A stretch of DNA of 64,000 nucleotides from Candidatus Multivoradales bacterium (lineage in GTDB: Bacteria; Acidobacteriota; Thermoanaerobaculia; Multivoradales; JAHEKO01): the NCBI GenBank assembly GCA_965223855.1, contig CBDCXM010000009.1:1440001-1504000 (forward strand). Reading direction: 5' to 3'. Below the pieces are notes generated by a model. The model had not been told where the DNA came from. It saw nothing but the letters and a program-made list of their open reading frames with translations, and made no database searches. The translations under genes were made by a program, and so were the position numbers. Positions 4,437-18,643 of the stretch are shown here, piece after piece. Position 1 is the stretch's first letter. Each line of letters starts with the position of its first letter.

Positions 4437-4532
4437 GCGGCCAGCCTAGCAGCCGCGGCCCGATCGAGCCGTGGCCCCCTTTCCCCGACTTCTGCGGTGA
4501 AGAGAGTAGGAGCCCGAAGGAAGGAGACCAAG

Positions 4533-5696
4533 ATGGTCAAGCGATGGCTGAGTCGACTGGAAACCGTTCACGTGGCGACGACCCGCGAAGAGCTCGAGGC
4601 CGTCTACCGCTTCCGCTACCAGGTCTACTTCGAGGAGTTCGGGCGTGAGCTCGGCGGCCCCGACCACGACCGCAAGTGGGTCACCGACGACGAGGACACC
4701 CGCTCCACTACGACCATCCTCTACACCGGCTCGGTGGACGACGTCACCGGCACCGTGCGACTGCGTCACTGGCCGGCCGGCCGGTGTCCTCGCCACGACG
4801 TCGAGGAGCTGTCGATCGACCGCTTCGAAGGCTACGAGGCGCTCGACACCGCCGAGATCGGCCGTCTCATGGTGCGCAAGTCGCTGCGGGGCAGGCTGAT
4901 CATCGCCTCGCTCCTGCGCGCGAGCTACGAGCTGCTGGTGGGAACCCATCACAGCGACCTTGTCTTCTGCTACTGCTCTCCGGGACTGGTGCGCTACTAC
5001 CAGCAGCTGGCGATGCGGCCGTTCGGAGGCCGGATCGTCCCTGCTCCCGACGGCATGATGGTGCCGCTCGTCTCCGTCCCCTCGGACGAGGCCTACTTCC
5101 GCGAAGTGCGATCGCTCTTCCTGCCGCTGGTGCGCGAGTACTTCGGTCCCGGGAAGCGCGAGCCCCTCGACCTCGCTCCCTACCGGCATCTCTTCGAGCC
5201 TCGGGAGAGCGGTGTGGACACCGATCCGGACCGACTGGCCCGAGCGGTCGCTCGGGCGCTCGAGGCCGCCTCGGCGCAGAGTTTCCTCGCCTCCCAGATC
5301 GACAGACTCGGTGACGAGCTTCTCCGCCAGGCGCTTGCCGTTCGGGTGCCTCGTGGCACGCTGATCACCCGTCGTGGCTTCCGCGAACGGGAGCTGTACG
5401 TCGTCCTGCGGGGGCGGTTCAGGAGCCGGCAGGAACGGGGCTACGCGATCGACGTCGGTCCGGGCGAGGTCTTCGGTGAAGACGCGCTGGTCGATCCGTC
5501 CCAGCGTCGCGTCGCCTCGGTGGAGGCGGTCGAGGAGGGTTGTCTGCTGGTGCTTCGGGGGCGTGCGGTCGAGCGGTTGGTGAAGCGACGACCGGTGGAG
5601 GCACGGCTTCTTCGCGGGGAGCTCGAGGAACTCTTCGCCCAACGCCGGGCCGCGCTCGTCGAGGCGACCGGGCCGATGCTGGCAGCAGCGAGCTAG
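4533..5696 (+). CDS. FeeM/N-acyl-amino-acid-synthase-like GNAT acyltransferase fused to a C-terminal cyclic-nucleotide-binding domain
   Basis: AAGGAG RBS. N-terminal EAVYRFRYQVY...GTVRL...AEIGRLMV...YYQQLAMRPFG. C-terminal LYVVLRG...GPGEVFGEDAL...RVASVEA (cNMP-binding cassette). Confidence 0.75.
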   Translation: MVKRWLSRLETVHVATTREELEAVYRFRYQVYFEEFGRELGGPDHDRKWVTDDEDTRSTTTILYTGSVDDVTGTVRLRHWPAGRCPRHDVEELSIDRFEGYEALDTAEIGRLMVRKSLRGRLIIASLLRASYELLVGTHHSDLVFCYCSPGLVRYYQQLAMRPFGGRIVPAPDGMMVPLVSVPSDEAYFREVRSLFLPLVREYFGPGKREPLDLAPYRHLFEPRESGVDTDPDRLARAVARALEAASAQSFLASQIDRLGDELLRQALAVRVPRGTLITRRGFRERELYVVLRGRFRSRQERGYAIDVGPGEVFGEDALVDPSQRRVASVEAVEEGCLLVLRGRAVERLVKRRPVEARLLRGELEELFAQRRAALVEATGPMLAAAS

Positions 5697-6061
5697 TGTC
5701 GGCCCGGCCGGCGATCGCGCAACCGCAACAGACCGTATGCCACCGCCAGCAGCAGGTACTGGGCGGCGAAGGTCCAACTGCCGATGCCGCTCGCCAGGTG
5801 GGTCCAGATTGCGCCTGCCATGACGACGGCAAGGACCGCCGCTCCGTAGAAGGCGACGGCGGGGACCAGCACCAGCAGGCCGCCGAGGACTTCGAGGACA
5901 CCGATCACGCGGCAGAATCCGGCGCTGTAACCCCACGCCTCGAACCGCTCGACCATGCCCGGATCGGGGTCGATCTTCGGCAGGCCGGACTGCAGGAAAG
6001 CCATCGCCAGGATCACGGCGAGAATCCAGTAGGCGATCTTGTCGGTGCGTCGTCTCGACAT
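5693..6061 (-). CDS. DoxX family membrane protein
   Basis: GAGGAG RBS; FLQSGLPKI...FEAWGY...IGVLEVLGGLLVL...MAGAIWTH. Confidence 0.85.
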   Translation of the reverse strand: MSRRRTDKIAYWILAVILAMAFLQSGLPKIDPDPGMVERFEAWGYSAGFCRVIGVLEVLGGLLVLVPAVAFYGAAVLAVVMAGAIWTHLASGIGSWTFAAQYLLLAVAYGLLRLRDRRPGRH

Positions 6062-6161
6062 CGCGGTCTCCTCAGGCTGTGATGGTGCTCCGAGGATATG
6101 CCATCCGCACGCCAGCCATCGGTTGCGGCGGCAGACGGGCCCGGACGAGGACGGGTGAGTC

Positions 6162-6341
6162 CTACCCCATGAAGAACCCCTTGCGATGGGAGACACCGAG
6201 GATCTTCCTGCAGGACGAACAGAAATAGACGTAGCGGCGGCCGAGGGTGCTGCGAACCGAGCGGACGAGGAGGCGTTGCTGAACCGTTTCGCAGTGCGGG
6301 CACAGCGGGTCGATGGTTTGCGTGGATTCGATCTCGATCAT
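6162..6341 (-). CDS. Small zinc-ribbon protein (59 aa), absent from the ORF track
   Basis: AGGAGAGG RBS; MIEIESTQTIDPLCPHCETVQQRLLVRSVRSTLGRRYVYFCSSCRKILGVSHRKGFFMG; two CxxC pairs. Confidence 0.7.
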   Translation of the reverse strand: MIEIESTQTIDPLCPHCETVQQRLLVRSVRSTLGRRYVYFCSSCRKILGVSHRKGFFMG

Positions 6342-6419
6342 GCCTCTCCTACGAGAGTCGCACGGGGCTCATTCCTGGCGGAACGGATCCTGGCTGCGGC
6401 ACACCGATAGGCTTGTGAC

Positions 6420-7037
6420 GTGGAGGAGACGCTTCTCGGACTTTCCCTCGGCCTTGCCGCCGGAGTCAGTCCCGGTCCGCTGCTGACGATGGTCGTCGAG
6501 GCGACGCTTCGGGGCGGCTTCGCGGCCGGCGCGCGGGTCGCAGCAGCTCCCCTCGTGAGCGATCTGCCGATGATCGCCGTCGCCGTGCTGGCGGTCGATC
6601 GGATCCCGGAGGCTGCCCAGGCCCTGCTGAGCCTGGCCGGCGGTTTCGTCGTGATCTGGATCGCGAGGGGTACCTGGCTTCACTCCGCCGATGTTCCCGC
6701 GCCGGGCGGCGCCGCCGGGCCGGCAGGCGAGCGCTCGAAGCTTCTCGCTGCGGTCGTCGTCAACGGCCTCAACCCCCACGCCTGGCTGTTCTGGGGCACC
6801 GTGGGGGCGCCGCTTCTGCTCGCCGCCTGGCCCGGGCGTCCGGGGGCCGCCGCCGGCTTCCTGATCGCCTTCTTCTCGCTGCTGATCGGAGCGAAGGTCG
6901 CCCTGGCAGGGGCGATCGCGGGCAACCGCCACCGGCTCGGCGAGCAGGGCTACCGCCGGCTGATGCTCGGCTGCAGCGTGCTGCTGCTCGGGCTGGGCGT
7001 CATGCTCGTCGTCCGCGGCGCTCTCGGCCTGGCCTGA
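6420..7037 (+). CDS. LysE family translocator
   Basis: GLSLGLAAGVSPGP; NGLNPHAWLFW; six hydrophobic segments. Confidence 0.85.
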   Translation: MEETLLGLSLGLAAGVSPGPLLTMVVEATLRGGFAAGARVAAAPLVSDLPMIAVAVLAVDRIPEAAQALLSLAGGFVVIWIARGTWLHSADVPAPGGAAGPAGERSKLLAAVVVNGLNPHAWLFWGTVGAPLLLAAWPGRPGAAAGFLIAFFSLLIGAKVALAGAIAGNRHRLGEQGYRRLMLGCSVLLLGLGVMLVVRGALGLA

Positions 7038-7078
7038 AGGGTCTCACGGCTTCGCGCTCGAAGGCCGTTGAGGCTGCA

Positions 7079-7106
7079 GCCCGGCTGACGCCGCCGTCAG
7101 CCGGGC
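7079..7106. terminator. Perfect 12-bp hairpin between the convergent LysE and mtrB-like genes (probable terminator, no U-tract)
   Basis: GCCCGGCTGACG-ccgc-CGTCAGCCGGGC. Confidence 0.55.
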
Positions 7107-7109
7107 AGG

Positions 7110-9368
7110 TCAGAACGAGAAGCTCAGGTTCACGCCCACGACGTTGGCCTCGTAGTTGCCGTTGTCGCCGGCCAGCAGGAAGCTGCCCGGGATGTAGGGC
7201 TCCAGCCCGGCGACGATGAAGCTGTCGATCGTGTAGTCCTCGTAGAGGTAGAAGAGCCCCCACGACGCCTGCTCGGTGATGTCGTGATCGAAACGGAAGT
7301 TCACCGCCAGCAGCTCGATGTCCTCGTAGTTGCCGAAATCGACGGCGCTCGACGGATTGCCCTCCGGCGCCGTCGTGAAGTCGGCTTCGCCGTCCGAGTC
7401 GGACAGTCGAGCCGAGAGGTCCCAGCGGTTCGACCCGCGCTCGCCGCTGATCCCGAGGCCCCAGGTGTCCCAGGTCTCGGTCAGATCGGCGCTCCAGTCG
7501 TCGGCCGGGTTGGTCGACAGGGTGCCACCCGACTGCCGCGCCCGCTGCAGCACGTCACGCTCGGCGACGTGGCCGAAGAAGTAGCAGTTCAGTCCCGCCC
7601 CCGGCGTATACCCCGCCTCGAAGTTGTACTGCACGATCTCGTCGCCGATCAGCCCGAACTCGCTCTCCGGGTACGAGTCGTCACGCCCGCTGACCCCGAA
7701 GGTCAGGCTGACGCCGTCCTTCGGTGCGAGCTGGACGGAGAGATCGTAGTCGTCGTAGTCCCTGGCCGCCTGGGTGAACTTGCGCAGGCCGGGCTGGTTG
7801 TTGATGCCGTGCGGGTCGAGGAAGCTCAGGAGCTGAGCCGCGGTGTCGTAGCCGTCGTTCGAGCGGTCTCCGGTCTCCCAACTCGCCCGCAGGGTGACGG
7901 CCTGGCTCGGGCGGCTGTCGAGGGTTACCTTGACGATGTCCTCGTCGGTGTTCGTCGTCTCGCGGAAGGTCCGATCCCAGGACAGGGTGCGGTAGCTCAG
8001 CCCCAGACTGGTGCTGTCGGACACCTCGAAGTCGAGCTCGACTCCGAGGTCGTCCCGGCTGTAGCTGTAGGGCACCGTGATGCGCGGCACTTCCTCCCAC
8101 ACCGAGTGCATTCTCACGTAGCCGGGGAACTCGACCCTCGCCGACTGGTTGTCGTAGTCGTAGTAGCGATAGCGCAGCGACAGCTCGACACGCTCTCCGA
8201 GGTCGGTGCCGGCGTTGCCTACGAAGCTCGTAACCTCTACCTTGGTGTCCGCGTTGCGGACCGGCAGGGTGGAGGGGTCAGTGGCCGAGAAGGTGGCGCC
8301 CGACTCGAGGTCGACGCCGACGATGGCCGTGTTCAAGGTGTAGGGAAGCAGTGGATCGTCCTGGGTCATCTCGTTGATGTTGAGCGTCCCGTGCATCCAC
8401 CAGCCTCCGACCTTGCCTCTGCCCGAGAGGAAGACCAGGTTGGCCTCGTTGTCGGGGGCGAGGTCGGCGAACCCGCGGCTACCCGTGTCGATCGCCGCGT
8501 TCGGCGCCAGATATGCGCGTGGGCCGGTGCCGTCGACGCCTGCGAAGGGGTTGTCCCACACCATCGTGCTGATCGAGTTCTCGAAGATCGAGCGCCGATA
8601 GCCGAAACGGACGCCTCCGTTGTCACCATTCCACTCACCCGAGATCTCGGCGTCGGTGGTGTCGTAGTCGATCGGCTCGCCGATCTCGGTGACATTGAAG
8701 AAGCCGAAGTTGCCGCCGTAGGGGCGCAGGCCGTTGCGGTTCTCGTGGCGGTACTCGGCGGCCCAGGCCATCCGGGCGAGCCGTCCGAGGTCCCAGGTGA
8801 TGCGGGTACGGTCGCGTTGCAGACCGAGGTCGAGGCTTCCGGCGGCGGCGATGTACGGGCCGATCAGCCCGCGCAGGAAGTCGCCGCTGATGCCGTTCGG
8901 GAACTGCTCGATGATCGCGCCCTGAATCGCGTTCTGCGTACTGTCGGCGATCTCCCATGTCCCGGGTGAGGTCCGCTGCCACATCGAGGTGGCACGGTTC
9001 TGGAAGCGATGCGGGATCTTGTTGTAGTCGAGGCTCACCGCGTAGCTTCCCGCCACGCCGTAGTCGAGGGCGTAGCGAGCATCGGCGCGCCCGACGTCGT
9101 CGGCACGGAACGCGAAGGTACGATCGCCGCCGTCGCCGGCTCCCGAGATGCGCAGGTCGCTCAACCTGAAGCCGCTCTTCAGATCCCGGTACTCGTTGAA
9201 CTTGGCCGACTCGGTGTCGACGTCGGTCTCGAGGACCTCCAGGCGGATGGAGTCCATCTGCATCGCGAAACCCTCCTCTTCGGCAGTCGCGTGTGCGCCG
9301 ATCGAAGCGGCCAGCGCCAGCGCTCCAGCGGTGAGAAGGAACTGTCGGGTGGTCTCTCTTGCCATCAT
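7110..9368 (-). CDS. mtrB: MtrB/PioB family outer-membrane beta-barrel (decaheme-associated porin)
   Basis: Signal peptide; SAKFNEYRDL; EPIDYDTT; LAPDNEAN; C-terminal aromatic beta-signal (LSFSF); 9 nt downstream of the decaheme gene. Confidence 0.9.
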   Translation of the reverse strand: MMARETTRQFLLTAGALALAASIGAHATAEEEGFAMQMDSIRLEVLETDVDTESAKFNEYRDLKSGFRLSDLRISGAGDGGDRTFAFRADDVGRADARYALDYGVAGSYAVSLDYNKIPHRFQNRATSMWQRTSPGTWEIADSTQNAIQGAIIEQFPNGISGDFLRGLIGPYIAAAGSLDLGLQRDRTRITWDLGRLARMAWAAEYRHENRNGLRPYGGNFGFFNVTEIGEPIDYDTTDAEISGEWNGDNGGVRFGYRRSIFENSISTMVWDNPFAGVDGTGPRAYLAPNAAIDTGSRGFADLAPDNEANLVFLSGRGKVGGWWMHGTLNINEMTQDDPLLPYTLNTAIVGVDLESGATFSATDPSTLPVRNADTKVEVTSFVGNAGTDLGERVELSLRYRYYDYDNQSARVEFPGYVRMHSVWEEVPRITVPYSYSRDDLGVELDFEVSDSTSLGLSYRTLSWDRTFRETTNTDEDIVKVTLDSRPSQAVTLRASWETGDRSNDGYDTAAQLLSFLDPHGINNQPGLRKFTQAARDYDDYDLSVQLAPKDGVSLTFGVSGRDDSYPESEFGLIGDEIVQYNFEAGYTPGAGLNCYFFGHVAERDVLQRARQSGGTLSTNPADDWSADLTETWDTWGLGISGERGSNRWDLSARLSDSDGEADFTTAPEGNPSSAVDFGNYEDIELLAVNFRFDHDITEQASWGLFYLYEDYTIDSFIVAGLEPYIPGSFLLAGDNGNYEANVVGVNLSFSF

Positions 9369-9377
9369 CGTCGCCTC

Positions 9378-10277
9378 CTAATGAGCGAGGTAGGGGCTCG
9401 AGGGGTGGTTGCTGCCGTGGACCGCTGCGTGGCAGTTCAGGCAGGCGCGGCTGAAATCACGATTGCTCGGTCTTGTGCCGTCGGCGAGCGTCGTGCGGTC
9501 GTAGAGTGTGCCCGGGTGCCGCGTGTTCGAGTGGCACTGCTGGCACAGATACGGCACCGAGGTGCGCTGAAGCTTGAGGTGGTTCGAGCCGTGCGGGGTG
9601 TGGCAGCTCGAGCAGTCCTCACGCACCGGAGGGTGCTCCCACAGGAAGGGGCCGCGCTTCTCGGTGTGGCAGCTGTAGCACTGGTCGTTGACCGAAGCGG
9701 CAGTGATCATCTTGGCGGTCTGGCTGCCGTGCGGGTTGTGGCAGTCGTTGCACCCCATCTGCCCTTCGCGGATCGGATGGTGCGAGGTCTTCCAGGTTTC
9801 CGCCCGCACGTCGGTGTGGCAGGAGAAACACTGCTGGGTCGCGTTGACGGCGTTGAGCTGCTTCGTCTCGGAGACGAAGGAGTGGACGCTGTGACACGTG
9901 AGGCAGGAGAGCCCCCTGGCCTCGTGCCGACCGCCGTCCCAGAAGAACTGGGTGCCGCCGTCGTGGCAGCTCTGGCACACGGCCGTCTGCTCCTCCGCGG
10001 GAAGGGCCAGGATCAGCGGGCGGTTCTCCTCGATCTCGGGGTCTTCGACGTGAAGGCTCCCCGGGCCGTGGCAGGTCTCACAGCCGTGGGCCGACAGCGC
10101 GGCGAAGCCGCTCTGGCCGTGGGCCGTACCGGCGAGTTGCTCCTCGTACCCGTCGTGGCACTCCAGGCAGAGATCGCTTCCCACGTAGGACGGTGAAGCA
10201 GCGGAAGCCGGAGCGGCCGCAAAGAGGGCGGCGAAGCCCGCCGCCAAGAAGAGCAGGTTCCGGATTCTCTCTCTCAC
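9378..10277 (-). CDS. mtrA: DmsE/MtrA/PioA/MtoA family decaheme c-type cytochrome
   Basis: Ten CxxCH motifs (CLECH, CETCH, CQSCH, CLTCH, CFSCH, CNDCH, CYSCH, CSSCH, CQQCH, CLNCH); EKRGPFLWEHPPV; HGSNHPS; signal peptide; GGAGGTG RBS. Confidence 0.93.
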   Translation of the reverse strand: MRERIRNLLFLAAGFAALFAAAPASAASPSYVGSDLCLECHDGYEEQLAGTAHGQSGFAALSAHGCETCHGPGSLHVEDPEIEENRPLILALPAEEQTAVCQSCHDGGTQFFWDGGRHEARGLSCLTCHSVHSFVSETKQLNAVNATQQCFSCHTDVRAETWKTSHHPIREGQMGCNDCHNPHGSQTAKMITAASVNDQCYSCHTEKRGPFLWEHPPVREDCSSCHTPHGSNHLKLQRTSVPYLCQQCHSNTRHPGTLYDRTTLADGTRPSNRDFSRACLNCHAAVHGSNHPSSPYLAH

Positions 10278-10464
10278 AGTGCACCTCCCTCGGCGTCGGC
10301 CCGAAGCGTCGGTGGGAGAGTGGCTCGGAATCCGTTTCGTCCGGAGCCTCGCCGACCGTGCCGGCCTTGGATCGCCATTGCTGATAACCGCACGCTAGCG
10401 AAGGCGTCCGACCGGCCAACGCCCGCCGGGGTGGTTGTGCGACCCGCCCCCACGGGTAGGTAGG

Positions 10465-10497
10465 GCGCCACCCGGTCACCACCCGACCGGGTGGCGC
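10465..10497. promoter_or_regulatory. Perfect 13-bp inverted repeat in the divergent mtrA / cytochrome c intergenic region
   Basis: GCGCCACCCGGTC-accaccc-GACCGGGTGGCGC. Confidence 0.5.
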
Positions 10498-10556
10498 GGG
10501 GGCCCGAGCGGAGTGCTTACCATCGAGCGAAGTTCTTTCGAGGAAGGAGTCCGCAG

Positions 10557-10979
10557 ATGAGCCAGCTGTGCCGAGTCGCGTCGTTGGGTGTCTTGCTCGT
10601 TTCTCTGCCGATCGCCCTGGCGTTCGCGGAGGAGACGGAGGCGGTCGAAGGGGCCGAGATGCCCGAGGTCTTCGGCGAGTACAAGTGCAGCATGTGCCAC
10701 TCGGTGGCGGGTGCCGGAGTCGTGGCGACCACGAAGCTCGAGAAGATGAAGGGGCCCGATCTCGGCGGCTACACCACCGAGGACCGCGGGGCCTTGTTCG
10801 AGTTCCTGACCCGGGCCGTGGAGGTCGACGGCGACAAGCACAACAAGGAATTCAAGGGCACTCGCGAAGAACTCGACGAGATTCTCGACTGGCTGGCCGA
10901 GCAGGAGCCGGAGAACTCGGGGTCGGAAGACCCGGCGTCTGAGGACCCGGCGCCAGGGAACCCGGAGTCGGGCGACTAG
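10557..10979 (+). CDS. Periplasmic monoheme cytochrome c, MtoD-like
   Basis: AAGGAG RBS; signal peptide; CSMCH; KGPDL; candidate distal His in DGDKH; ILDWL C-terminal helix. Confidence 0.8.
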   Translation: MSQLCRVASLGVLLVSLPIALAFAEETEAVEGAEMPEVFGEYKCSMCHSVAGAGVVATTKLEKMKGPDLGGYTTEDRGALFEFLTRAVEVDGDKHNKEFKGTREELDEILDWLAEQEPENSGSEDPASEDPAPGNPESGD

Positions 10980-10987
10980 GAGGCCGC

Positions 10988-11602
10988 ATGGTCGACTCGA
11001 CCGGCATGGTGGGCGTGGCGGTCATCGTCCTCGCCCTCCTGATCGTCTTCTGGCTGAGTCAGCGTTCGGCCGTCGTCCGAGACCGCGCCGGAATGCTGCA
11101 GGCGCTTCTGGGACTCGTCGCGGTGCCGGTGCTGGTTTCGGCGATCGGTACGCGAGTGCATCTGCAGAAGGCGAAGTCGACCGACTTCTGCCTCTCGTGC
11201 CATGAGATGGAGCCCTACGGCCGAACCCTCCACGCCGACGCCGAGTGGCTGCCCGCAGTCCACCTCCAGAACCGTCGGATCCCTTCCGACAAGGCCTGCT
11301 ACGTCTGCCACACGAGTTACACGATGTTCGGCGATCTCGAAGCGAAGATGAAGGGCGTCCGGCATCTCGCGGTCCACTACTTCGGCGAGATTCCGGAGAC
11401 GATCGAGCTCTACGAGCCCTATCGCAATCGGGAGTGTCTCCACTGCCACGGCGGGGCGCGCTACCTCCTGGAAGACGGGATGCACGATGAGCTCCTGCTG
11501 GCCGAGGACGTCGAGGAGGTCTCGTGCCTCGAGTGCCACGACACGGTCCACGAACTCGACGAGCTCGAGGACACGCCGAGCTGGGAGGCCCCCGATGCCT
11601 GA
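10988..11602 (+). CDS. NapC/NirT/CymA family membrane-anchored tetraheme cytochrome c (quinol dehydrogenase-type)
   Basis: AGGAGG RBS; two N-terminal TM segments; STDFCLSCHEM (CxxCHxM), CYVCH, CLHCH, CLECH. Confidence 0.85.
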   Translation: MVDSTGMVGVAVIVLALLIVFWLSQRSAVVRDRAGMLQALLGLVAVPVLVSAIGTRVHLQKAKSTDFCLSCHEMEPYGRTLHADAEWLPAVHLQNRRIPSDKACYVCHTSYTMFGDLEAKMKGVRHLAVHYFGEIPETIELYEPYRNRECLHCHGGARYLLEDGMHDELLLAEDVEEVSCLECHDTVHELDELEDTPSWEAPDA

Positions 11603-11792
11603 TCGGGCGCGCCGCTCGAGGACGCATGCCGGCGGTTGGATCGCAGCGGGCCTGGCGGTGCAGGCCGTCTCCTTCGTGCTGTCGGGGCCCCCTGCCTTCC
11701 TGATCTTCGCTCTGGTCGGCCTGCCGCTCGTTGCCGTCGGGGTGGTTCGCTACCTCTTCTCGTTGCTCGCCGGTCCGCCGGGCGCCGGCTGA
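11595..11792 (+). CDS. Small two-TM membrane protein overlapping the NapC-like gene
   Basis: GGAGG RBS inside the upstream gene; MPDRARR...WIAAGLAVQAVSFVLSGPPAFLIFALVGLPLVAVGVVRYLF. Confidence 0.65.
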   Translation: MPDRARRSRTHAGGWIAAGLAVQAVSFVLSGPPAFLIFALVGLPLVAVGVVRYLFSLLAGPPGAG

Positions 11793-11848
11793 GCGTTGAC
11801 GGGCCGCGAGAGGTCGAGCGTGCCCACGCGCCGGGAGGGACGTCGCCG

Positions 11849-14800
11849 ATGAGCGCAGCGATCGATCCGATCGAAACCGCGATGCTCGACGGCAACGAGG
11901 CTGTCGCCTCGGTCGCCTATCGCAGCAACGAGGTGATCGCGATCTACCCGATCACGCCCGCGTCGCCGATGGGCGAACACTGCGACGCCTGGGCCGTGCA
12001 AGGGCGGACCAACGTCTGGGGCCAGGTGCCGGACGTCGCCGAGATGCAATCGGAGGGGGGCGCTGCAGGCGCCGTTCATGGAGCGCTCCAGGCGGGAGCT
12101 CTGACGACGACCTTCACCGCGTCGCAGGGCCTGCTGCTGATGGTCCCGAACCTGTACAAGATCGCCGGCGAACTCACTCCGTTCGTCCTCCACGTTGCGG
12201 CGCGCACTCTCGCCACGCATGCGCTGTCGATCTTCGGCGACCACTCGGACGTCATGGCGGCCCGTCAGACCGGCTTCGCCATGCTGGCGTCGAACACGCC
12301 GCAGGAGGCGCACGACTTCGCCCTGATCGCACAGGCGGCGACTCTCGCCTCGCGAATCCCGGTGCTGCACTTCTTCGACGGCTTCCGCACTTCCCACGAG
12401 ATCGGCCGGGTCGAGCTGCTCTCGGACGACGACCTGCGCGCGCTGCTGCCGAACGAGCAGATCGCCGCGCATCGCGAGCGTGCGCTCACCCCGGACCGGC
12501 CGGTGCTGCGCGGCACCGCGCAGAACCCGGACGCCTTCTTCCAGGCACGCGAGGCGTGCAACCCGTTCCACGACGCCTGCCCGGCGATCGTTCAGGCGAC
12601 GATGGATCGCTTCGCCGAGCGCACAGGCCGCAGGTATCGACTGTTCGACTACTACGGCGACCCGGAAGCGGAGCAGGTGGTGGTGCTCATGGGCTCGGGC
12701 GTCGAGACGGTGCGCGAGACGATCGACTGGCTCGGCGCCGGTGGCCGCAGGGTCGGAGTCCTCGCGGTGCGGCTCTACCGGCCCTTCGACCAGGCGGCCC
12801 TGGTGGCTGCGCTGCCGAAGTCGGTGCGTCGGATCGCCGTTCTCGACCGGACGAAGGAGCCGGGTGCCCAGGGCGATCCGCTCTACCTCGACGTCGCTAC
12901 GGCACTCGGAGACGAGCGCCGCGAGAGCGGCTTCGATCCGCTGGTCGTCGCCGGTCGGTACGGTCTGTCGTCGAAGGAGTTCGACCCCGCGTGCGTGAAG
13001 GCGGTCTTCGACCAGCTCGAAGCCGAGACGCCGCGCCACAAGTTCACCGTCGGCATCGTCGACGACGTCACCCACCGGTCGCTGCCGGTCGAGCGACCCC
13101 TCGACATCGAGCCGGAGGGTCGAACCCGGGCCGTCTTCTTCGGCCTCGGCTCGGACGGCACGGTCAGCGCCAACAAGAACTCGATCAGGATCATCGGCGA
13201 GTCGACCGACCTGCACGCCCAGGGCTATTTCGTCTACGACTCCAAGAAGGCGGGCGCCGTGACGGTGTCGCACCTGCGCTTCGGGGATGAGCCGATCCAT
13301 TCGACCTACCTGGTGCAGCAGGCCGATTTCGTCGGCTGCCACCAGTTCGACTTCCTCGAACGCCTCGATGTTCTCGAGACGGCTCGCCCCGGTGCGGTGT
13401 TCCTGCTGAACTCTCCCTGTCCTGCCGAGCGGGTGTGGGACCGCCTGCCAAGAGAGGTGCAGGAGACGGTCCTCGACCGGCAGCTCGCGGTCCACGTGAT
13501 CGACGCCTACGCCGTGGCCAAGCAGGCGGGGCTCGGCGTGCGCATCAACACCATCATGCAGACCTGCTTCTTCGCCCTCTCCGGGGTGCTGCCGCAGGAG
13601 CAGGCGATCGCCTCGATCAAGAAAGCGATCGACGGGAGCTACGGCAAGAGAGGTCCTGTGCTGGTGGAGAAGAACCATCGGGCGGTCGACATGGCGCTCG
13701 CCCACCTGCACACGCTGGAGACGCCGGCGCAGGTCACGGCACGGCATGGGCGGCCGCCGATCGTCCCGGCCGCGGCGCCGGATTTCGTGCAACGGGTGAC
13801 CAGCGTGCTGCTGGCGCAGAAGGGCGACCTGCTGCCGGTGAGCGCGTTTCCACCCGACGGCACGTTCGCGACCGGCACGTCGCAGTGGGAGAAGCGGGCG
13901 ATCGCCACCGAGATCCCGCTGTGGGACTCGGACGTCTGCATCCAGTGCAACCAGTGCACGCTCGTGTGTCCACACGCCGCGATCCGCGCCAAGGTCTACG
14001 ACCGCGACGAGCTGGCAGGTGCGCCCGACGGCTTCCGCTCGACCGAGTATCGGGCACCGGATCTGCGGGGGCTCGAGTACACGCTGCAGGTCGCGCCGGA
14101 GGATTGCACCGGCTGTCATCTGTGCGTCGAGGTCTGTCCGGCGAGGGACAAGGCGCATCCGCGTCGCAAGGCGATCAACATGGAGCCGCTGGCCCCGGTT
14201 CGTGAGAGCGAGAGCGAGGCGTACGCCTTCTTTCTGGACCTTCCCGAGATCGATCGCGACCGGATCGCGCGCCTCGACGCGAAGGGCTCGCAGTTCTTCC
14301 AGCCGCTCTTCGAGTACTCCGGCGCCTGTGCCGGCTGCGGCGAGACCCCGTACCTCAAACTGCTGACCCAGCTCTTCGGTGACCGGCTGCTGATCGCCAA
14401 CGCCACCGGGTGCTCTTCGATCTACGGTGGCAACCTGCCGACGACGCCCTACACGACGAATGTCGACGGTCGCGGGCCGGCCTGGTCGAACTCGCTCTTC
14501 GAGGACAACGCCGAGTTCGGCTTCGGCATGCGGCTGGCCCTGGAGGTTCTCGAGCACCGTGCTCGAGATCTGTTGCGGCGCCTGACAGGTCCCGAAGGCC
14601 CGGTCGAGCCGGTGCTGACCGGGAAGTTGCTCGCCCCCGTCGAGCGCACCGATCGGGGGATCGCGCTGCAGCGAGCACACGTCACTCAGCTCAGACACGA
14701 GCTCGAAGCGATCGAGCACCCCGACGCACGCGAACTCGATGCCCTCGCGGACGCTCTCGTGCCGAAGAGCGTCTGGCTGGTCGGTGGAGACGGTTGGGCC

Positions 14801-15454
14801 TACGACATCGGCTACGGCGGGCTCGACCACGTGCTCGCCAGCCGTCGGAACGTCAACGTCCTGGTGCTCGACACCGAGGTGTACTCCAACACCGGCGGCC
14901 AGCAATCGAAGGCGACACCGCTCGGTGCAGCCGCCAAGTTCGCGTCGGCGGGCAAGGAGGTGGGGAAGAAGGACCTCGGGATGGAGATGATGAGCTACGG
15001 CCACGTCTACGTCGCCCAGATCGCCTTCGGCGCCAGCATGAATCAGACCGTGCAGACCCTTCTGGAGGCGGAGGCTCACGACGGGCCGTCGCTCGTGATC
15101 GCCTTCAGCCCGTGCATCGCCCACGGCTACGACCTGTCGCAGAACGTGGCGCAGCAGAAGCGCATGGTCGAGAGCGGGATCTGGCCGCTCTATCGTTTCG
15201 ATCCGCGACGCAGTGCTGCGGGCGAGCCGCCGCTGGCGCTCGACAGCCGCCCTCCGCGACTCGACGTGGAGAGGGTGCTCGAGGTCGAGACCCGCTATCG
15301 GATGGTCGAGAAGGTCGATCCCGATCGCTACCGCCGCCTGGTCCGGGAACGGCGGCGCGAGGTCGAGGAGCGGTTTTCGATCTACCGGCAGCTCGCCGGG
15401 ATCCGAATCGACGGCGACGGCGTCCCGGAGCGAAGGCCGGGTAGGGAGTCTTGA
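11849..15454 (+). CDS. nifJ: Pyruvate:ferredoxin (flavodoxin) oxidoreductase
   Basis: DGNEAVA; YPITPASPM; EMQSEGGAAG; two ferredoxin motifs (CIQCNQCTLVCP, CTGCHLCVEVCP); GACAGCGE; GGDGWAYDIG; EVYSNTGGQ. Confidence 0.96.
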   Translation: MSAAIDPIETAMLDGNEAVASVAYRSNEVIAIYPITPASPMGEHCDAWAVQGRTNVWGQVPDVAEMQSEGGAAGAVHGALQAGALTTTFTASQGLLLMVPNLYKIAGELTPFVLHVAARTLATHALSIFGDHSDVMAARQTGFAMLASNTPQEAHDFALIAQAATLASRIPVLHFFDGFRTSHEIGRVELLSDDDLRALLPNEQIAAHRERALTPDRPVLRGTAQNPDAFFQAREACNPFHDACPAIVQATMDRFAERTGRRYRLFDYYGDPEAEQVVVLMGSGVETVRETIDWLGAGGRRVGVLAVRLYRPFDQAALVAALPKSVRRIAVLDRTKEPGAQGDPLYLDVATALGDERRESGFDPLVVAGRYGLSSKEFDPACVKAVFDQLEAETPRHKFTVGIVDDVTHRSLPVERPLDIEPEGRTRAVFFGLGSDGTVSANKNSIRIIGESTDLHAQGYFVYDSKKAGAVTVSHLRFGDEPIHSTYLVQQADFVGCHQFDFLERLDVLETARPGAVFLLNSPCPAERVWDRLPREVQETVLDRQLAVHVIDAYAVAKQAGLGVRINTIMQTCFFALSGVLPQEQAIASIKKAIDGSYGKRGPVLVEKNHRAVDMALAHLHTLETPAQVTARHGRPPIVPAAAPDFVQRVTSVLLAQKGDLLPVSAFPPDGTFATGTSQWEKRAIATEIPLWDSDVCIQCNQCTLVCPHAAIRAKVYDRDELAGAPDGFRSTEYRAPDLRGLEYTLQVAPEDCTGCHLCVEVCPARDKAHPRRKAINMEPLAPVRESESEAYAFFLDLPEIDRDRIARLDAKGSQFFQPLFEYSGACAGCGETPYLKLLTQLFGDRLLIANATGCSSIYGGNLPTTPYTTNVDGRGPAWSNSLFEDNAEFGFGMRLALEVLEHRARDLLRRLTGPEGPVEPVLTGKLLAPVERTDRGIALQRAHVTQLRHELEAIEHPDARELDALADALVPKSVWLVGGDGWAYDIGYGGLDHVLASRRNVNVLVLDTEVYSNTGGQQSKATPLGAAAKFASAGKEVGKKDLGMEMMSYGHVYVAQIAFGASMNQTVQTLLEAEAHDGPSLVIAFSPCIAHGYDLSQNVAQQKRMVESGIWPLYRFDPRRSAAGEPPLALDSRPPRLDVERVLEVETRYRMVEKVDPDRYRRLVRERRREVEERFSIYRQLAGIRIDGDGVPERRPGRES

Positions 15455-15456
15455 GC

Positions 15457-16458
15457 ATGGACCTGACCACCCGTTACATGGGCCTCGACCTGGCCCACCC
15501 GATCCTGCCGGGAGCCGGGCCGCTCGCCGACGACGTCGACTCGGCGCGGGCTCTCGAGGACGCAGGGGCGGCCGCCATCGTCCTGCGCTCGCTCTTCGAG
15601 GAGCAGCTCGAGGCGGAGCAGATGGCCACGGTCGGTCACTACCAGCAGATCACCGACGCCTTCGCCGAGACGAACTCCTATCTGCCGGCCCGTGAGGAGT
15701 TCGTGCTCGGCCCGGACGAGTACCTGAATCACCTCCTCGAGGTTCGCGAGGCGGTCGACCTGCCCGTGATCGCCTCGCTCAACGGCACCGTGGGCGGCTA
15801 CTGGCTCGAGTACGCCCAGCTCATCGAGGGCGCCGGAGCGGCCGCTCTCGAGCTCAATGTCTTCGACATCGAGACCGATCCGCGGACCACCGGCGCGGAA
15901 CTCGAGGAGCGTCTGCTGCAGATGGTGCGACGGCTCGCCGCCGAGCTCGAGATCCCGTTCGCGGTCAAGCTCTCTCCCTTCTACTCGGCGATCCTCAACC
16001 TGGCTTCAGAGATCCATCAGCAAGGCGCTGCGGGCGTCGTGCTCTTCAACCGCTTCTTCCAGGCCGATCTGGATCTGGACGCTCTCGAAGTCGAGCGCCG
16101 CCTCCAGCTCTCGACGCCCGCCGAGCTGCCACTGAGACTGAGGTGGCTCGCGATTCTCTCGGGGGCCCTCGACGGCCCCCCCTCGCTGGCAGCGACCGGT
16201 GGCGTTCACACGGCCGAGGACGTCGTCAAGGCGCTCGCCTGCGGCGCTGACGTCGTGCAGGTCGTGTCGCGCCTTCTTCGCGACGGTCCGAGTGCGCTGC
16301 TCGAGCTGCGTCGCGGATTGGAACGATGGCTCGAGGAGTACGAGTACGAGTCGCTCGACCAGCTGCGCGGATCGATGAACCTCGCTCGCTGTCCAGATCC
16401 CGGGATGTACGAGCGGGCGAACTACATCCACCTGCTGCAGGGCTATCGGTGGAGTTGA
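15457..16458 (+). CDS. Dihydroorotate dehydrogenase-like flavoprotein (nifJ-associated type)
   Basis: MDLTTRYMGLDLAHPI; SLFEEQ; PVIASLNG; AVKLSPFYS; VLFNRFFQ; ATGGVH; YERANY; 2 nt after the nifJ stop. Confidence 0.9.
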   Translation: MDLTTRYMGLDLAHPILPGAGPLADDVDSARALEDAGAAAIVLRSLFEEQLEAEQMATVGHYQQITDAFAETNSYLPAREEFVLGPDEYLNHLLEVREAVDLPVIASLNGTVGGYWLEYAQLIEGAGAAALELNVFDIETDPRTTGAELEERLLQMVRRLAAELEIPFAVKLSPFYSAILNLASEIHQQGAAGVVLFNRFFQADLDLDALEVERRLQLSTPAELPLRLRWLAILSGALDGPPSLAATGGVHTAEDVVKALACGADVVQVVSRLLRDGPSALLELRRGLERWLEEYEYESLDQLRGSMNLARCPDPGMYERANYIHLLQGYRWS

Positions 16459-16478
16459 TCGGTTTCGGCGGAGACGAC

Positions 16479-16928
16479 CTATCGGTACCCGTGCTCTCGA
16501 AGGAATCGGGAGACGGCTTCGTGGTTCTCGCCGTAGGCCAGCCATACCGCGGCGCACCAGCGGTCGAGTTCCCGATCGCGATCGCTTCCCGGTGAGGCTG
16601 CGACCACGTCGATGGCGGTGACGTCGCCGCGATCTTCCGGCAGCACGAGCTCAGGCCATCGGAGTCTGCGCCGTCCCTCGTTCTTCCGCCCCAACGCCAT
16701 GTGGGCGCGCTGAACCTGGCGTCCGCTCCAGCCGCGATCGACGTGGAGCAGCAGGCCGACCAGGGCGAAGGTGATGCCGATCGGCCTCGTCGTGGCGTCG
16801 GCGTGCTGAGCGGTCCAGGCGTCCACCGCATGCTGGTGCACGAAGTCCGGGCCGGCGTGCGACCAGGTGTAGGCGGTGAGCTCGTCGTAGGCCGCCTGCT
16901 CTGCGGCCGGGATGGTGGTCGTCGGCAC
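16479..16928 (-). CDS. DUF5946-like protein
   Basis: FVHQHAVDAWTAQH...ITFALVGLLLHV...VQRAH...WCAAVW. Confidence 0.65.
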   Translation of the reverse strand: MPTTTIPAAEQAAYDELTAYTWSHAGPDFVHQHAVDAWTAQHADATTRPIGITFALVGLLLHVDRGWSGRQVQRAHMALGRKNEGRRRLRWPELVLPEDRGDVTAIDVVAASPGSDRDRELDRWCAAVWLAYGENHEAVSRFLREHGYR

Positions 16929-17008
16929 TATCGCTCGATGGTGTCACGCGGCGTCGGGTCGACGAGCCGGCAGCGGTTCGGCAGCGAGGCGGTGCGATAC
17001 TCCTGCGC

Positions 17009-18643
17009 GTGAGGAATCGCCTCGGAGCCGCGAGCGTGGTCGCCGGTCGGCCCTCGACGAGGGTCGGTCTGGTGCTGCTCGCCGCCGTCGTGCTCTCTGT
17101 GCCGGTGCTCCTCGCCGCGGGCTCGCAGACCGCCTCAGCCGCCGACGAGGGGCAACGGATGCGCTTCGCCGCGGTCGCCTCGGCCACCGACTACATGCAC
17201 ATCGGAGCCGCGCTCGCCTTCGCGCTGCTCCATCTGTTGCTCTTCGCGTTCTACCGGCGGGAGCGCGGCAATCTCTACTTCGCCGTCTTCGCGCTCGCCT
17301 ACGCCGGGATGACCTGGGGCGGCTATCAGCTCGACCATCCCGAGCCGGATCCGAATGTCCCGAGACTGGTCGCCCTGCTGCGGTTCACCTTCACCTGCGG
17401 CATCGTGCAGGCGTTCACCCTTCAGCGCTTCGCCCACGTCGAGTTCCTCGAGCGCACACCGCGGCTCTTTCACGTGCTTCTGCTCTGGGGCGCAGGCGTC
17501 ATCCTCTGGGTCTGGACCGTCCCCGCGGAGAGCCTGCGGATTCAGCCGGTGATGTACCTGGCGATCGCGACTACTGCCGAGCTGATGCGCACCGTCATCC
17601 TGGCTGCGCGCGGGCCGCGACGCCCCTCGGCGTGGCTGATCTACGTCGGCCTGGCGGCTCTCGCCTTGGCCGGTCTGGTCCAGAGTCTGCTGGCGCTGGG
17701 CGTCTTCGGCGCCTTCCAGCAGCGGGTCTACGCCTATGGCGTGCTGTTCTTCATGCTGGCGATCTCGATCTATCTGTCGCGCCGCTTCGCCACGATCGCC
17801 CTCGAGCTGGAGCATCAGCTGGAGGAGGTGCAGCGGCTGTCGGTCGTCACCCTGGAACAGGAGCGCGAAGCGCGTCGCCGGGAGGTCGAGAGCAGACTGC
17901 TGGAGGCGGAGAACGACCGGCGCGCCCACGAGCTCGAGGAGGCCCGGCGGCTGCAGCTCTCGATGGTGCCCTCCGAGCCGCCGGCCGTGCCCGGGCTCGA
18001 GATCGCGGTTGCGATGGAGACCGCCACCGAGGTCGGCGGCGACTACTACGACTTCCGGGTGGCGGAGGACGGGGCGCTCACTCTCGCCGTCGGCGATGCC
18101 ACCGGTCACGGCCTCAACGCCGGCCTGGTCGTCGCCTCCACCAAGAGCCTCTTCCAGGGGCTTGATGCCGGACGTTCGCTGCCCGAGTCGATGGAGCGGA
18201 TCGATCGCGGACTGCGTGGAATGCGACTGAAGCGACTGGCGATGAGCCTCGTGCTCGCGCGCTACCGCGAGGGCCGGCTGGAGGTTGCGGCGGCGGGGAT
18301 GCCTCCGCTCCTCGTCTATCGTCGGCGGGAACGCCGAGTGGAGGAATGTCTCCTCGCGGCACCGCCGCTCGGCACGCTCAAGGCCCGTACTTTCGAGTCC
18401 CACGAGCTGCAGGTGGGGGAGGGAGACGCCGTGCTCCTCGCCACCGACGGCCTGGTCGAGTTGCTCGACCCCGAGGACCGGGAATTGGGCTACGAGGAGG
18501 CGGCGAGCACCTTCTCTCGTGTCGGCGCCGCGAGCGCCGGCGACGCCGTGGCCGGTCTTCTCGAGCGTGTCGGCGCTTGGGCCTCCGGTCGGCCGCTCGA
18601 GGACGACCTGACCCTGATGGTGTTGCGCCGGCAGGTGAGGTGA
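17009..18643 (+). CDS. Membrane-bound PP2C/SpoIIE (RsbU-like) serine phosphatase with multi-TM sensor region
   Basis: ELEEARRLQLSM; EVGGDYYDF; VGDATGHG; AAGMPP; LATDGLVE; EDDLTL. Confidence 0.9.
   Translation: MRNRLGAASVVAGRPSTRVGLVLLAAVVLSVPVLLAAGSQTASAADEGQRMRFAAVASATDYMHIGAALAFALLHLLLFAFYRRERGNLYFAVFALAYAGMTWGGYQLDHPEPDPNVPRLVALLRFTFTCGIVQAFTLQRFAHVEFLERTPRLFHVLLLWGAGVILWVWTVPAESLRIQPVMYLAIATTAELMRTVILAARGPRRPSAWLIYVGLAALALAGLVQSLLALGVFGAFQQRVYAYGVLFFMLAISIYLSRRFATIALELEHQLEEVQRLSVVTLEQEREARRREVESRLLEAENDRRAHELEEARRLQLSMVPSEPPAVPGLEIAVAMETATEVGGDYYDFRVAEDGALTLAVGDATGHGLNAGLVVASTKSLFQGLDAGRSLPESMERIDRGLRGMRLKRLAMSLVLARYREGRLEVAAAGMPPLLVYRRRERRVEECLLAAPPLGTLKARTFESHELQVGEGDAVLLATDGLVELLDPEDRELGYEEAASTFSRVGAASAGDAVAGLLERVGAWASGRPLEDDLTLMVLRRQVR

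Follow-up and report, generated by a model that had tools for sequence, protein, structure and literature searches.

A putative MtrAB-type electron conduit beside a pyruvate:ferredoxin oxidoreductase module in a Multivoradales genome: two probably separate gene modules

In the present study, we analysed a stretch of 64,000 nucleotides (nt; hereafter the window) from Candidatus Multivoradales bacterium (GenBank assembly GCA_965223855.1, contig CBDCXM010000009.1, positions 1,440,001 to 1,504,000), in which genes for an MtrB-type porin and three c-type cytochromes adjoin nifJ, the gene of a pyruvate:ferredoxin oxidoreductase (PFOR). The comparisons led us to propose, with moderate confidence, that the locus consists of two separate modules, an electron conduit typical of the lineage and a PFOR module beside it, which are possibly co-transcribed. 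Module 1 (7110-11792) is most likely a conduit unit of the kind that occurs in related genomes without nifJ, and module 2 (11849-16458) comprises nifJ and a gene for a dihydroorotate dehydrogenase (DHOD)-like protein. A preliminary description of the locus, made from the sequence alone, had suggested that extracellular electron exchange may be coupled here to pyruvate metabolism.

Gene layout and its counterparts in related genomes

The features of the locus are as follows (positions in the window; lengths in amino acids, aa).

7110-9368, minus strand: MtrB/PioB-family outer-membrane beta-barrel porin, 752 aa (PF11854; match to PDB 6r2q_B)
9378-10277, minus strand: MtrA/DmsE/MtoA-family decaheme c-type cytochrome, periplasmic/porin-inserted, 299 aa (TIGR03508; ten CXXCH)
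10278-10556, no strand: divergent intergenic region with a perfect 13-bp inverted repeat at 10465-10497
10557-10979, plus strand: periplasmic monoheme cytochrome c, 140 aa, with a signal peptide and one CXXCH (PF00034)
10988-11602, plus strand: divergent NapC/NirT-family tetraheme cytochrome, 204 aa, putative quinol/quinone oxidoreductase (PF03264; four CXXCH)
11595-11792, plus strand: two-helix hydrophobic membrane protein, 65 aa, of no family, predicted partner of the NapC-type protein
11793-11848, plus strand: 56-nt spacer ahead of nifJ that contains a GGGAGG ribosome site but no terminator
11849-15454, plus strand: nifJ, single-chain pyruvate:ferredoxin (flavodoxin) oxidoreductase, 1201 aa (TIGR02176)
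15451-16458, plus strand: DHOD-like FMN TIM-barrel protein, 335 aa (NF005741)

The seven genes are genuine and not chance open reading frames (ORFs), as judged from strong family matches and a high GC content at third codon positions; the GC content of the region is even (0.66-0.69). ORF calls together with Pfam and NCBIfam matches bore out the seven genes, coordinates and strands given in the preliminary description, and its spacings were reproduced. The monoheme and NapC genes are separated by 8 nt, the NapC gene and the 65-aa ORF overlap by 8 nt, 56 nt lie between the 65-aa ORF and nifJ, and the boundary between nifJ and the DHOD-like gene is a 2-nt gap (ATG at 15457) or, with a TTG start, a 4-nt overlap. 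On the minus strand, 9 nt separate the stop of the decaheme gene from the start of the porin gene. In a six-frame scan of the 64 kb, only four ORFs contained CXXCH, namely those of the three cytochromes and nifJ. Since the single motif outside the cytochromes belongs to the Fe-S domain of nifJ, no MtrC/OmcA-type gene stands beside mtrAB or elsewhere in the window, as had been claimed. The Mto-like layout recognised earlier, with a porin, a decaheme, a periplasmic monoheme and a NapC/NirT-type inner-membrane cytochrome and no MtrC in cis, also stood, and the assignment to a probable acidobacterium agrees with the closest relatives, which are Thermoanaerobaculia/Acidobacteriota.

The window proteins were then compared by tblastn with 80 loci carrying mtrA (L001-L080), the best 80 of 574 relatives at one genome per species (top identity 71%), and the locus neighbours were scanned with Pfam. 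The loci reach at least 6 kb upstream of mtrA in 52 cases and at least 8 kb downstream in 51, all 80 together amount to 1.24 Mb, and an MtrB match accompanies MtrA in 72 of the 80. Two of them, L002 and L003, show the divergent order of the window, with mtrB-mtrA on one side and the genes for cytochrome c, the NapC-type protein and the 65-aa protein on the other, and in L016 the order on a single strand is cytochrome c, NapC, 65-aa protein, mtrA and mtrB. The genes that follow the 65-aa gene on the opposite strand are unrelated, being peptidase M23/SH3 and OmpA in L002, and a metallo-beta-lactamase-fold protein and a patatin in L003. The napC-nifJ junction is found in none of the three relatives that keep the window-type NapC (L002, L003 and L016). 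The preliminary description had named the absence of this adjacency from related genomes among the findings that would refute the coupling, and its absence from all three bears this out in part.

By contrast with nifJ, the 65-aa gene stands directly after the gene of the window NapC subfamily in all four sources (the window, L002, L003 and L016). A hidden Markov model of the 65-aa protein found matches only in these four (E ≤ 1.8e-29; next best E = 2), and ten positions are invariant among the four sequences. Because the conduit unit in the relatives ends with NapC and the 65-aa protein, the latter is taken to belong to NapC.

For module 2, the nifJ product matches TIGR02176 with 1716 bits (cut-off 911.35) over model positions 3-1166 of 1167 and contains the Pfam domains POR_N, PFOR_II, POR, EKR, two [4Fe-4S] domains and TPP_enzyme_C. 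The DHOD-like protein scored 399.7 bits against NF005741 (cut-off 303), its nearest structures being class 1B PyrD (47 bits) and dihydropyrimidine dehydrogenase (39 bits); the barrel begins with the first residues, without an N-terminal extension, and the protein has only two cysteines. In L001, the closest relative, nifJ (69% identity) is likewise followed by a DHOD-like gene (53% identity; 426 bits on NF005741) with an identical 4-nt overlap. DHOD-like homologues also occur on ten plasmid records, seven of which were inspected, the PLSDB gene tables being incomplete. A co-oriented triad of GltD-like gene, nifJ and DHOD-like gene is present on two of these seven (Methylovirgula pHY1 and a Phenylobacterium zucineum plasmid), and the other five have a DHOD-like gene but no nifJ. 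In the triad, the leading gene encodes a GltD-like Fe-S flavoprotein with PF14691, PF07992 and a dicluster domain (NF009410, 752.8 bits). For Propionibacterium, the sections of PMC7650540 consulted describe PFOR as co-transcribed with flanking GltD-like and DHOD-like genes and postulate a quinol-linked bifurcating complex. The window resembles this triad in that its NF005741 gene comes directly after nifJ, but differs in that a PRK12771-type NAD(P)-binding Fe-S flavoprotein was not found among the scanned proteins of the 64 kb; the NapC-65-aa pair occupies the position that the GltD-like gene has before nifJ in the triad. On these sequence comparisons, nifJ and the DHOD-like gene form a separate recurring module, which elsewhere occurs without cytochromes.

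Some further observations concern this module. Where the DHOD-like gene is present without nifJ, its neighbours are still genes of fermentation or glycolysis, and it lies among genes for L-lactate dehydrogenase and PEP synthase on a Stanieria plasmid (L086) and among those for phosphofructokinase, hypD and alcohol dehydrogenase on an Acaryochloris plasmid (L082). In L001 (13134-16115, minus strand), three more genes come after nifJ-DHOD-like on its strand, which code for a membrane protein of 441 aa that matches COX1/NnrS weakly, a DUF302 protein and a tandem universal stress protein; at its end, the run is convergent with mtrB. The terms dihydroorotate, cytochrome, neighbourhood and Acidobacteria do not occur in PMC13768988, a review of PFOR diversity, and PMC12221290 was rejected as a comparison for the DHOD-like protein, as it deals with PyrK/NfnA and not with PyrD-like proteins.

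Components of the putative conduit

The porin matches PF11854 (MtrB_PioB) with 319.7 bits (cut-off 23) over profile positions 3-635 of 635, scores slightly under the cut-off of the stricter TIGR03509 (228.9 against 240.05 bits), and ends in ...SFSF. The decaheme cytochrome, whose hydrophobic N-terminus ends in ...ASAAS, lies above the cut-off of the TIGR03508 DmsE family (251.7 against 192.2 bits). In the PDB, the porin matched chain 6r2q_B (46.6 bits, E 1.3e-11) and the decaheme cytochrome chain 6r2q_A (212.5 bits, E 7.5e-62). We take 6R2Q to be the Shewanella baltica MtrCAB complex (the PDB table gives its chains other labels). The decaheme cytochrome has at least 7976 relatives at E ≤ 0.001 among the 8000 candidates scored, the best non-self match having 79% identity, and the named matches come from metagenome-assembled genomes (MAGs) of Thermoanaerobaculia and from one 'Deltaproteobacteria bacterium' MAG. 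In a tree of 80 rows (79 loci and the window), it forms a clade with L001, L002 and L003, all of which are Acidobacteriota/Thermoanaerobaculia (SH-aLRT 100). Aminicenantes-type rows are next nearest, and the Gallionellaceae row (L064) and the Chromatiaceae rows stand apart. Since the tree is without Shewanella, Sideroxydans and Rhodopseudomonas references, the protein is not nameable as MtrA, MtoA, PioA or DmsE. One locus, L004, was dropped from the tree; there (8128-11292), the MtrA homologue has only 8 CXXCH across overlapping, broken frames and the MtrB match covers only 432 aa. The broken mtrA may be a frameshift error of long-read assembly or a decayed copy.

The NapC-type cytochrome matches PF03264 with 46.2 bits (cut-off 24.1) at residues 39-185, and stays under the cut-offs of the NCBIfam equivalogs NrfH (45 against 134.2 bits), NapC/NirT (33.5 against 310.6) and TorC (28.9 against 478.2); a search of the PDB gave no match at E<0.4. 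Its subfamily comprises 230 homologues, which are named NapC/NirT and come from Thermoanaerobaculia, Vicinamibacteria and Acidobacteriota. On PF03264 the subfamily scores 35-48 bits, as against 205-257 bits for the NapC-family genes that stand beside mtrAB-like (mtoAB-like) genes in Pseudomonadota loci, by which measure it is divergent within NapC/NirT. The canonical NapC/NirT architecture has a single N-terminal membrane helix. The window protein departs from it, with two hydrophobic segments (about residues 7-24 and 36-53) ahead of heme 1, so that a second hydrophobic helix precedes the canonical one. Heme 1 carries a CXXCHxM motif in which M74 is invariant in 42 of 42 NapC-type sequences. 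The protein is a putative quinol/quinone oxidoreductase. In the NapC of L016, the fourth heme motif is CxxxxCH rather than CXXCH.

The 65-aa protein has no named family in Pfam or NCBIfam, a word-based protein search returned only the protein itself (one of 7 candidates), and an Atlas search gave unnamed Acidobacteriota clusters of 67-68 aa at 0.87, under the lead threshold of 0.9. Its complex with the NapC-type protein was modelled with scores of 0.64, 0.59 and 0.67 in three runs, whereas the best of 3 controls reached 0.01; the contact agreement was at least 93% and the pLDDT (predicted local distance difference test) of the partner at least 78. In the calibration of the tool, 116 of 157 solved complexes passed the mark for the complex score, as did 2 of 215 mismatched pairs, figures that hold only roughly for alignments of one's own. 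The modelled interface brings together residues 2-71 of NapC and residues 6-54 of the 65-aa protein. We concluded that the 65-aa protein is the predicted membrane partner of NapC and its gene the last of the conduit unit.

The ORF of the monoheme cytochrome opens at 10491, and the start was set at 10557 by a ribosome site, GGAAGGAG, and the signal peptide. The protein matches PF00034 with 23.0 bits (cut-off 21.3), and its family counts 453 cluster representatives at E ≤ 1e-3. Among 62 aligned sequences, C44, C47, H48 and H95 are invariant in all 62, while a Met after the heme motif is merely the majority residue, suggesting that the heme is probably bis-His ligated. The AlphaFold2 model (mean pLDDT 81) has a class I-like fold with no specific PDB match. 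The single sequence gave no PDB match at E ≤ 10; the profile of the 62 sequences matched MtoD (4xxl_A) at positions 9-119 with E = 0.0049 and 19.6 bits, and most of the PDB matches listed for it are confined to the heme-motif region. In a Foldseek search with the model, MtoD (4xxl) ranked 10 (E = 0.76), and no structure was found at E ≤ 1e-3. With these values, the label 'MtoD-type' used earlier is unproven. A specific family kinship with the monohemes of proteobacterial Mto clusters was also considered and rejected, as the hhalign alignments were short, comprising 39 columns in the heme-motif region for L071 and 64 columns in the heme-motif region and C-terminal helix for L080, which indicates class I kinship only. 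From its gene position and signal peptide, we infer that the cytochrome may act as a periplasmic shuttle.

Compared with known systems, the locus resembles the Mto cluster of Sideroxydans lithotrophicus ES-1 (MtoA, MtoB, MtoD, PmcA and ImoA/'CymA-ES1') in that a porin with a decaheme, one or more small periplasmic monohemes and a NapC/NirT tetraheme cytochrome of the inner membrane are encoded in one cluster that has no MtrC, and its monoheme cytochrome is probably bis-His ligated like MtoD. It differs in that the decaheme belongs to a separate Acidobacteriota clade, the monoheme is not a demonstrable homologue of MtoD, the NapC-type protein possesses one N-terminal helix more and a 65-aa partner of its own, and the genes are arranged divergently. 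According to the portions of PMC13390432 consulted, MtoD is bis-His ligated with a potential of +155 mV, its cluster neighbour PmcA is His-Met ligated with -143 mV, and PmcA, not MtoD, partners the NapC-type ImoA and MtoA (a 2026 study). With the MtrCAB-CymA system of Shewanella, the window shares related MtrA- and MtrB-type proteins (212.5 and 46.6 bits to 6r2q_A and 6r2q_B) and the overall scheme of quinol dehydrogenase, periplasmic shuttle and porin-cytochrome. However, Shewanella has MtrC/OmcA and the tetraheme STC/FccA shuttle where the window has no MtrC/OmcA and a monoheme shuttle, and the window NapC-type protein is distant from the canonical members. In Table 1 of a 2018 survey (PMC6295460), Acidobacteria are listed with 0 CymA homologues. 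The 'Group 5' MtrCAB of Acidobacteriia (Baker et al., 2022; PMC8805035) is also an Mtr-type conduit in Acidobacteriota with lineage-specific accessory cytochromes; in the sections of that article concerned, its clusters have MtrC and a tetraheme periplasmic cytochrome after mtrB, with no inner-membrane quinone oxidoreductase nearby, whereas the window has no MtrC but a NapC-type inner-membrane module. The word pyruvate is absent from PMC8805035.

Proposed electron route, direction of flow and the possible link to PFOR

In the proposed mechanism, the NapC/NirT tetraheme cytochrome, anchored in the inner membrane by its own two helices and by its two-helix 65-aa partner, would exchange electrons with the quinone pool, the monoheme cytochrome, probably bis-His ligated, would shuttle them through the periplasm, and the decaheme cytochrome, threaded in the MtrB-type porin, would take them across the outer membrane. 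The resulting order, from the quinone pool through NapC/65-aa, monoheme and decaheme/porin to the outside or the reverse, is proposed by analogy with Shewanella Mtr and Sideroxydans Mto as presented in parts of PMC8805035 and PMC13390432. Module 2 would interconvert pyruvate and acetyl-CoA with ferredoxin as the electron carrier. As it lies right behind module 1 and is possibly read through, both modules may be switched on together under anoxia. PFOR and the DHOD-like protein belong to the cytoplasm and the cytochromes to the periplasm, and ferredoxin together with the quinone pool is the only link possible between them. No gene bridging ferredoxin to quinone is present among the window genes, and no ferredoxin, Rnf, hydrogenase or GltD-like gene was found in the 64 kb. 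Judged by this gene content, the modules are physically joined without a dedicated electron path between them in cis.

The earlier statement that the direction of electron flow cannot be read from the sequence was upheld, nor could any decaheme tree give it. We favour outward flow, in which respiratory/fermentative electrons would pass to Fe(III), Mn(IV) or humics, a preference that derives from the lineage and not from the sequence. It is favoured because the cultured member of the lineage is described as reducing iron anaerobically and because electron transfer from quinol to ferredoxin needs reverse electron transport. The reduction of ferredoxin, near -500 mV, from quinol requires such energy-driven reverse flow. 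The parts of PMC9671151 and PMC5900883 consulted describe Thermoanaerobaculum aquaticum as an iron reducer that is anaerobic, and its MAG as carrying MtrC and two MtrA.

Several observations weigh against the reading of two separate modules with outward flow. The outward direction leans on one cultured relative, and a layout that lacks MtrC belongs to proposed Fe(II) oxidisers. Moreover, nifJ lies within 10 kb of mtrAB in two of the 80 loci, in differing arrangements. In L001, nifJ-DHOD-like is found past mtrB at a distance of 4 kb, in convergent orientation; in L042, a Vicinamibacterales MAG from another MtrA clade, nifJ is encoded on the other strand, past the second mtrAB and feoB, 7.5 kb from the second mtrA. 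By chance, 0.12-0.41 such loci would be expected, and the Poisson P of finding at least two is 0.007-0.065, a range that depends on the assumed genome size and nifJ prevalence. For the 16 Acidobacteriota loci alone, P is near 0.001-0.003, the choice of these loci being post hoc. Beyond mtrAB-cytochrome c and nifJ-DHOD-like, L001 had no match to the other window genes tested, and the persistent proximity could thus reflect selection. In the window, the genes from cytochrome c through DHOD-like are all co-oriented on the plus strand, the 56-nt gap contains no terminator-like site, and 198 of 200 shuffles of it fold more stably (z = +2.08), so that a single transcript is quite possible. No sigma-70-like site was found as a promoter of nifJ, the consensus being one that may not apply to the phylum; the same scan of 9900-17100 gave no promoter-like site at all and carries no information for an acidobacterium. 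Read-through into nifJ from the conduit genes is thus plausible on these sequence features.

A rival explanation is an 'electron vent' operon, in which conduit and PFOR are co-transcribed and their proximity has been selected. Electrons from pyruvate would pass from ferredoxin over an unlinked ferredoxin:quinone route to the quinone pool and the conduit, and their disposal outside would replace H2/reduced fermentation products. The common strand, the short gap with no terminator and the GGGAGG ribosome site before nifJ are consistent with this explanation, as is the presence of nifJ, with or without the DHOD-like gene, near mtrAB in L001 and L042. In L016 (5615-8302), a GNAT-fused ADP-forming acyl-CoA synthetase-like gene of Pat-like architecture stands directly upstream of the co-oriented conduit operon. 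Its product is ambiguous, reaching 526 bits against the acetate-CoA ligase cut-off of 567 bits, and as an acetate-forming enzyme it was not counted. Against the operon speak the junction missing from the three relatives with window-type NapC, the position of nifJ in L001 and L042 on the other side or strand, outside the conduit operon, the lack of a ferredoxin:quinone link in the window, and the proximity statistic, which is small and post hoc. We regard this explanation as possible but unlikely. For the coupling of conduit and PFOR put forward in the preliminary description speak the gap free of terminators and the nearness of nifJ to mtrAB in two relatives; against it speak the junction missing from the relatives, the 65-aa protein, which goes with NapC, and nifJ-DHOD-like as an independent module. 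The link between PFOR and the conduit is a weak lead.

It is improbable, in our estimation, that nifJ-DHOD-like, which here lacks its usual GltD-like partner, serves as a pyruvate-to-menaquinone route in which the DHOD-like protein feeds the quinone pool at the four-helix NapC/65-aa anchor. If this were true, one operon would carry electrons from pyruvate to an extracellular acceptor, as a fermentation-to-mineral vent with a previously undescribed inner-membrane module.

Inward, Mto/Pio-like uptake, in which electrons from Fe(II) or a cathode would pass through MtrAB, cytochrome c and NapC to the quinones and ultimately to PFOR for reductive carboxylation of acetyl-CoA, is highly improbable: the decaheme does not fall among the Gallionellaceae and Chromatiaceae of the tree, the monoheme resembles MtoD only marginally, the window contains no gene for reverse electron flow, no terminal oxidase and no carbon-fixation gene, and the cultured relative is described as reducing iron anaerobically (PMC9671151 and PMC5900883, in part). 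On its side are the Sideroxydans-like combination of a monoheme and a NapC-type cytochrome with no MtrC, the invariant second His of the monoheme, MtoD being bis-His ligated, and the possible bidirectionality reported for the NapC-type ImoA (PMC13390432 for the Sideroxydans cluster, MtoD and ImoA).

Intergenic signals, neighbouring genes and implications

The divergent intergenic region contains an inverted repeat at 10465-10497, GCGCCACCCGGTC-N7-GACCGGGTGGCGC, with perfect 13-bp arms, 60 nt before the start of the monoheme gene. It is unique in the window (0.02 matches expected), and folded as RNA it gives z = -2.5 for the plus strand and z = -2.0 for the minus strand. A related 9-bp inverted repeat, CGGGTGGCG/CGCCACCCG, is located at the equivalent place in L001, and none was found there in L002, L003 or L016. 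The repeat may be an operator or a 5' hairpin. An operator shared by the gap upstream of nifJ and the divergent intergenic region was considered and rejected, the two having only two 8-mers in common. One terminator-like site was found in 9900-17100, inside the 65-aa ORF, as against 2.4 expected from shuffles.

The related loci showed further features around the conduit genes. In L001 (4235-9255, minus strand), the NapC-65-aa pair is replaced by a 995-aa cytochrome with 21 CXXCH and a C-terminal membrane helix, followed by a second cytochrome with 11 CXXCH (start 6241) and a signal peptide. L016 carries nrfA-nrfH (13227-15138) convergent with and after mtrB, and L042 has two tandem mtrA-mtrB pairs followed by feoB and a NosL-like gene (5972-15297).

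Within the window, the neighbouring genes are unrelated (LysE, DoxX, DUF5946, SpoIIE phosphatase, transporters and peptidases), and there is no Rfam match in the whole 64 kb. An ORF at 22179-23546 matches the phage tail sheath domains PF04984 and PF17482. It adjoins a TonB-dependent receptor gene whose longest ORF overlaps it, and may belong to a contractile injection system or a prophage remnant. At 4497-5696, an N-acyl amino acid synthase (FeeM/GNAT) domain and a cyclic-nucleotide-binding domain occur together in one protein; the longer ORF that covers this gene on the other strand (4446-5936) matches no family and is probably spurious.

The conduit itself is of a known kind, and its inner-membrane module, composed of a two-helix NapC, a 65-aa partner and a monoheme family of its own, is a variant that we did not find described, this combination being absent from the limited library of literature searched. 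In sediments and soils, Thermoanaerobaculia and related Acidobacteriota are widespread, and it is routine to score their MtrA-type genes as markers of iron cycling. If PFOR is indeed wired to the conduit, fermentation would be tied directly to mineral reduction. The divergent two-helix NapC/NirT protein, with its dedicated 65-aa partner and its own monoheme shuttle, represents a concrete candidate inner-membrane link for the conduits of Acidobacteriota.

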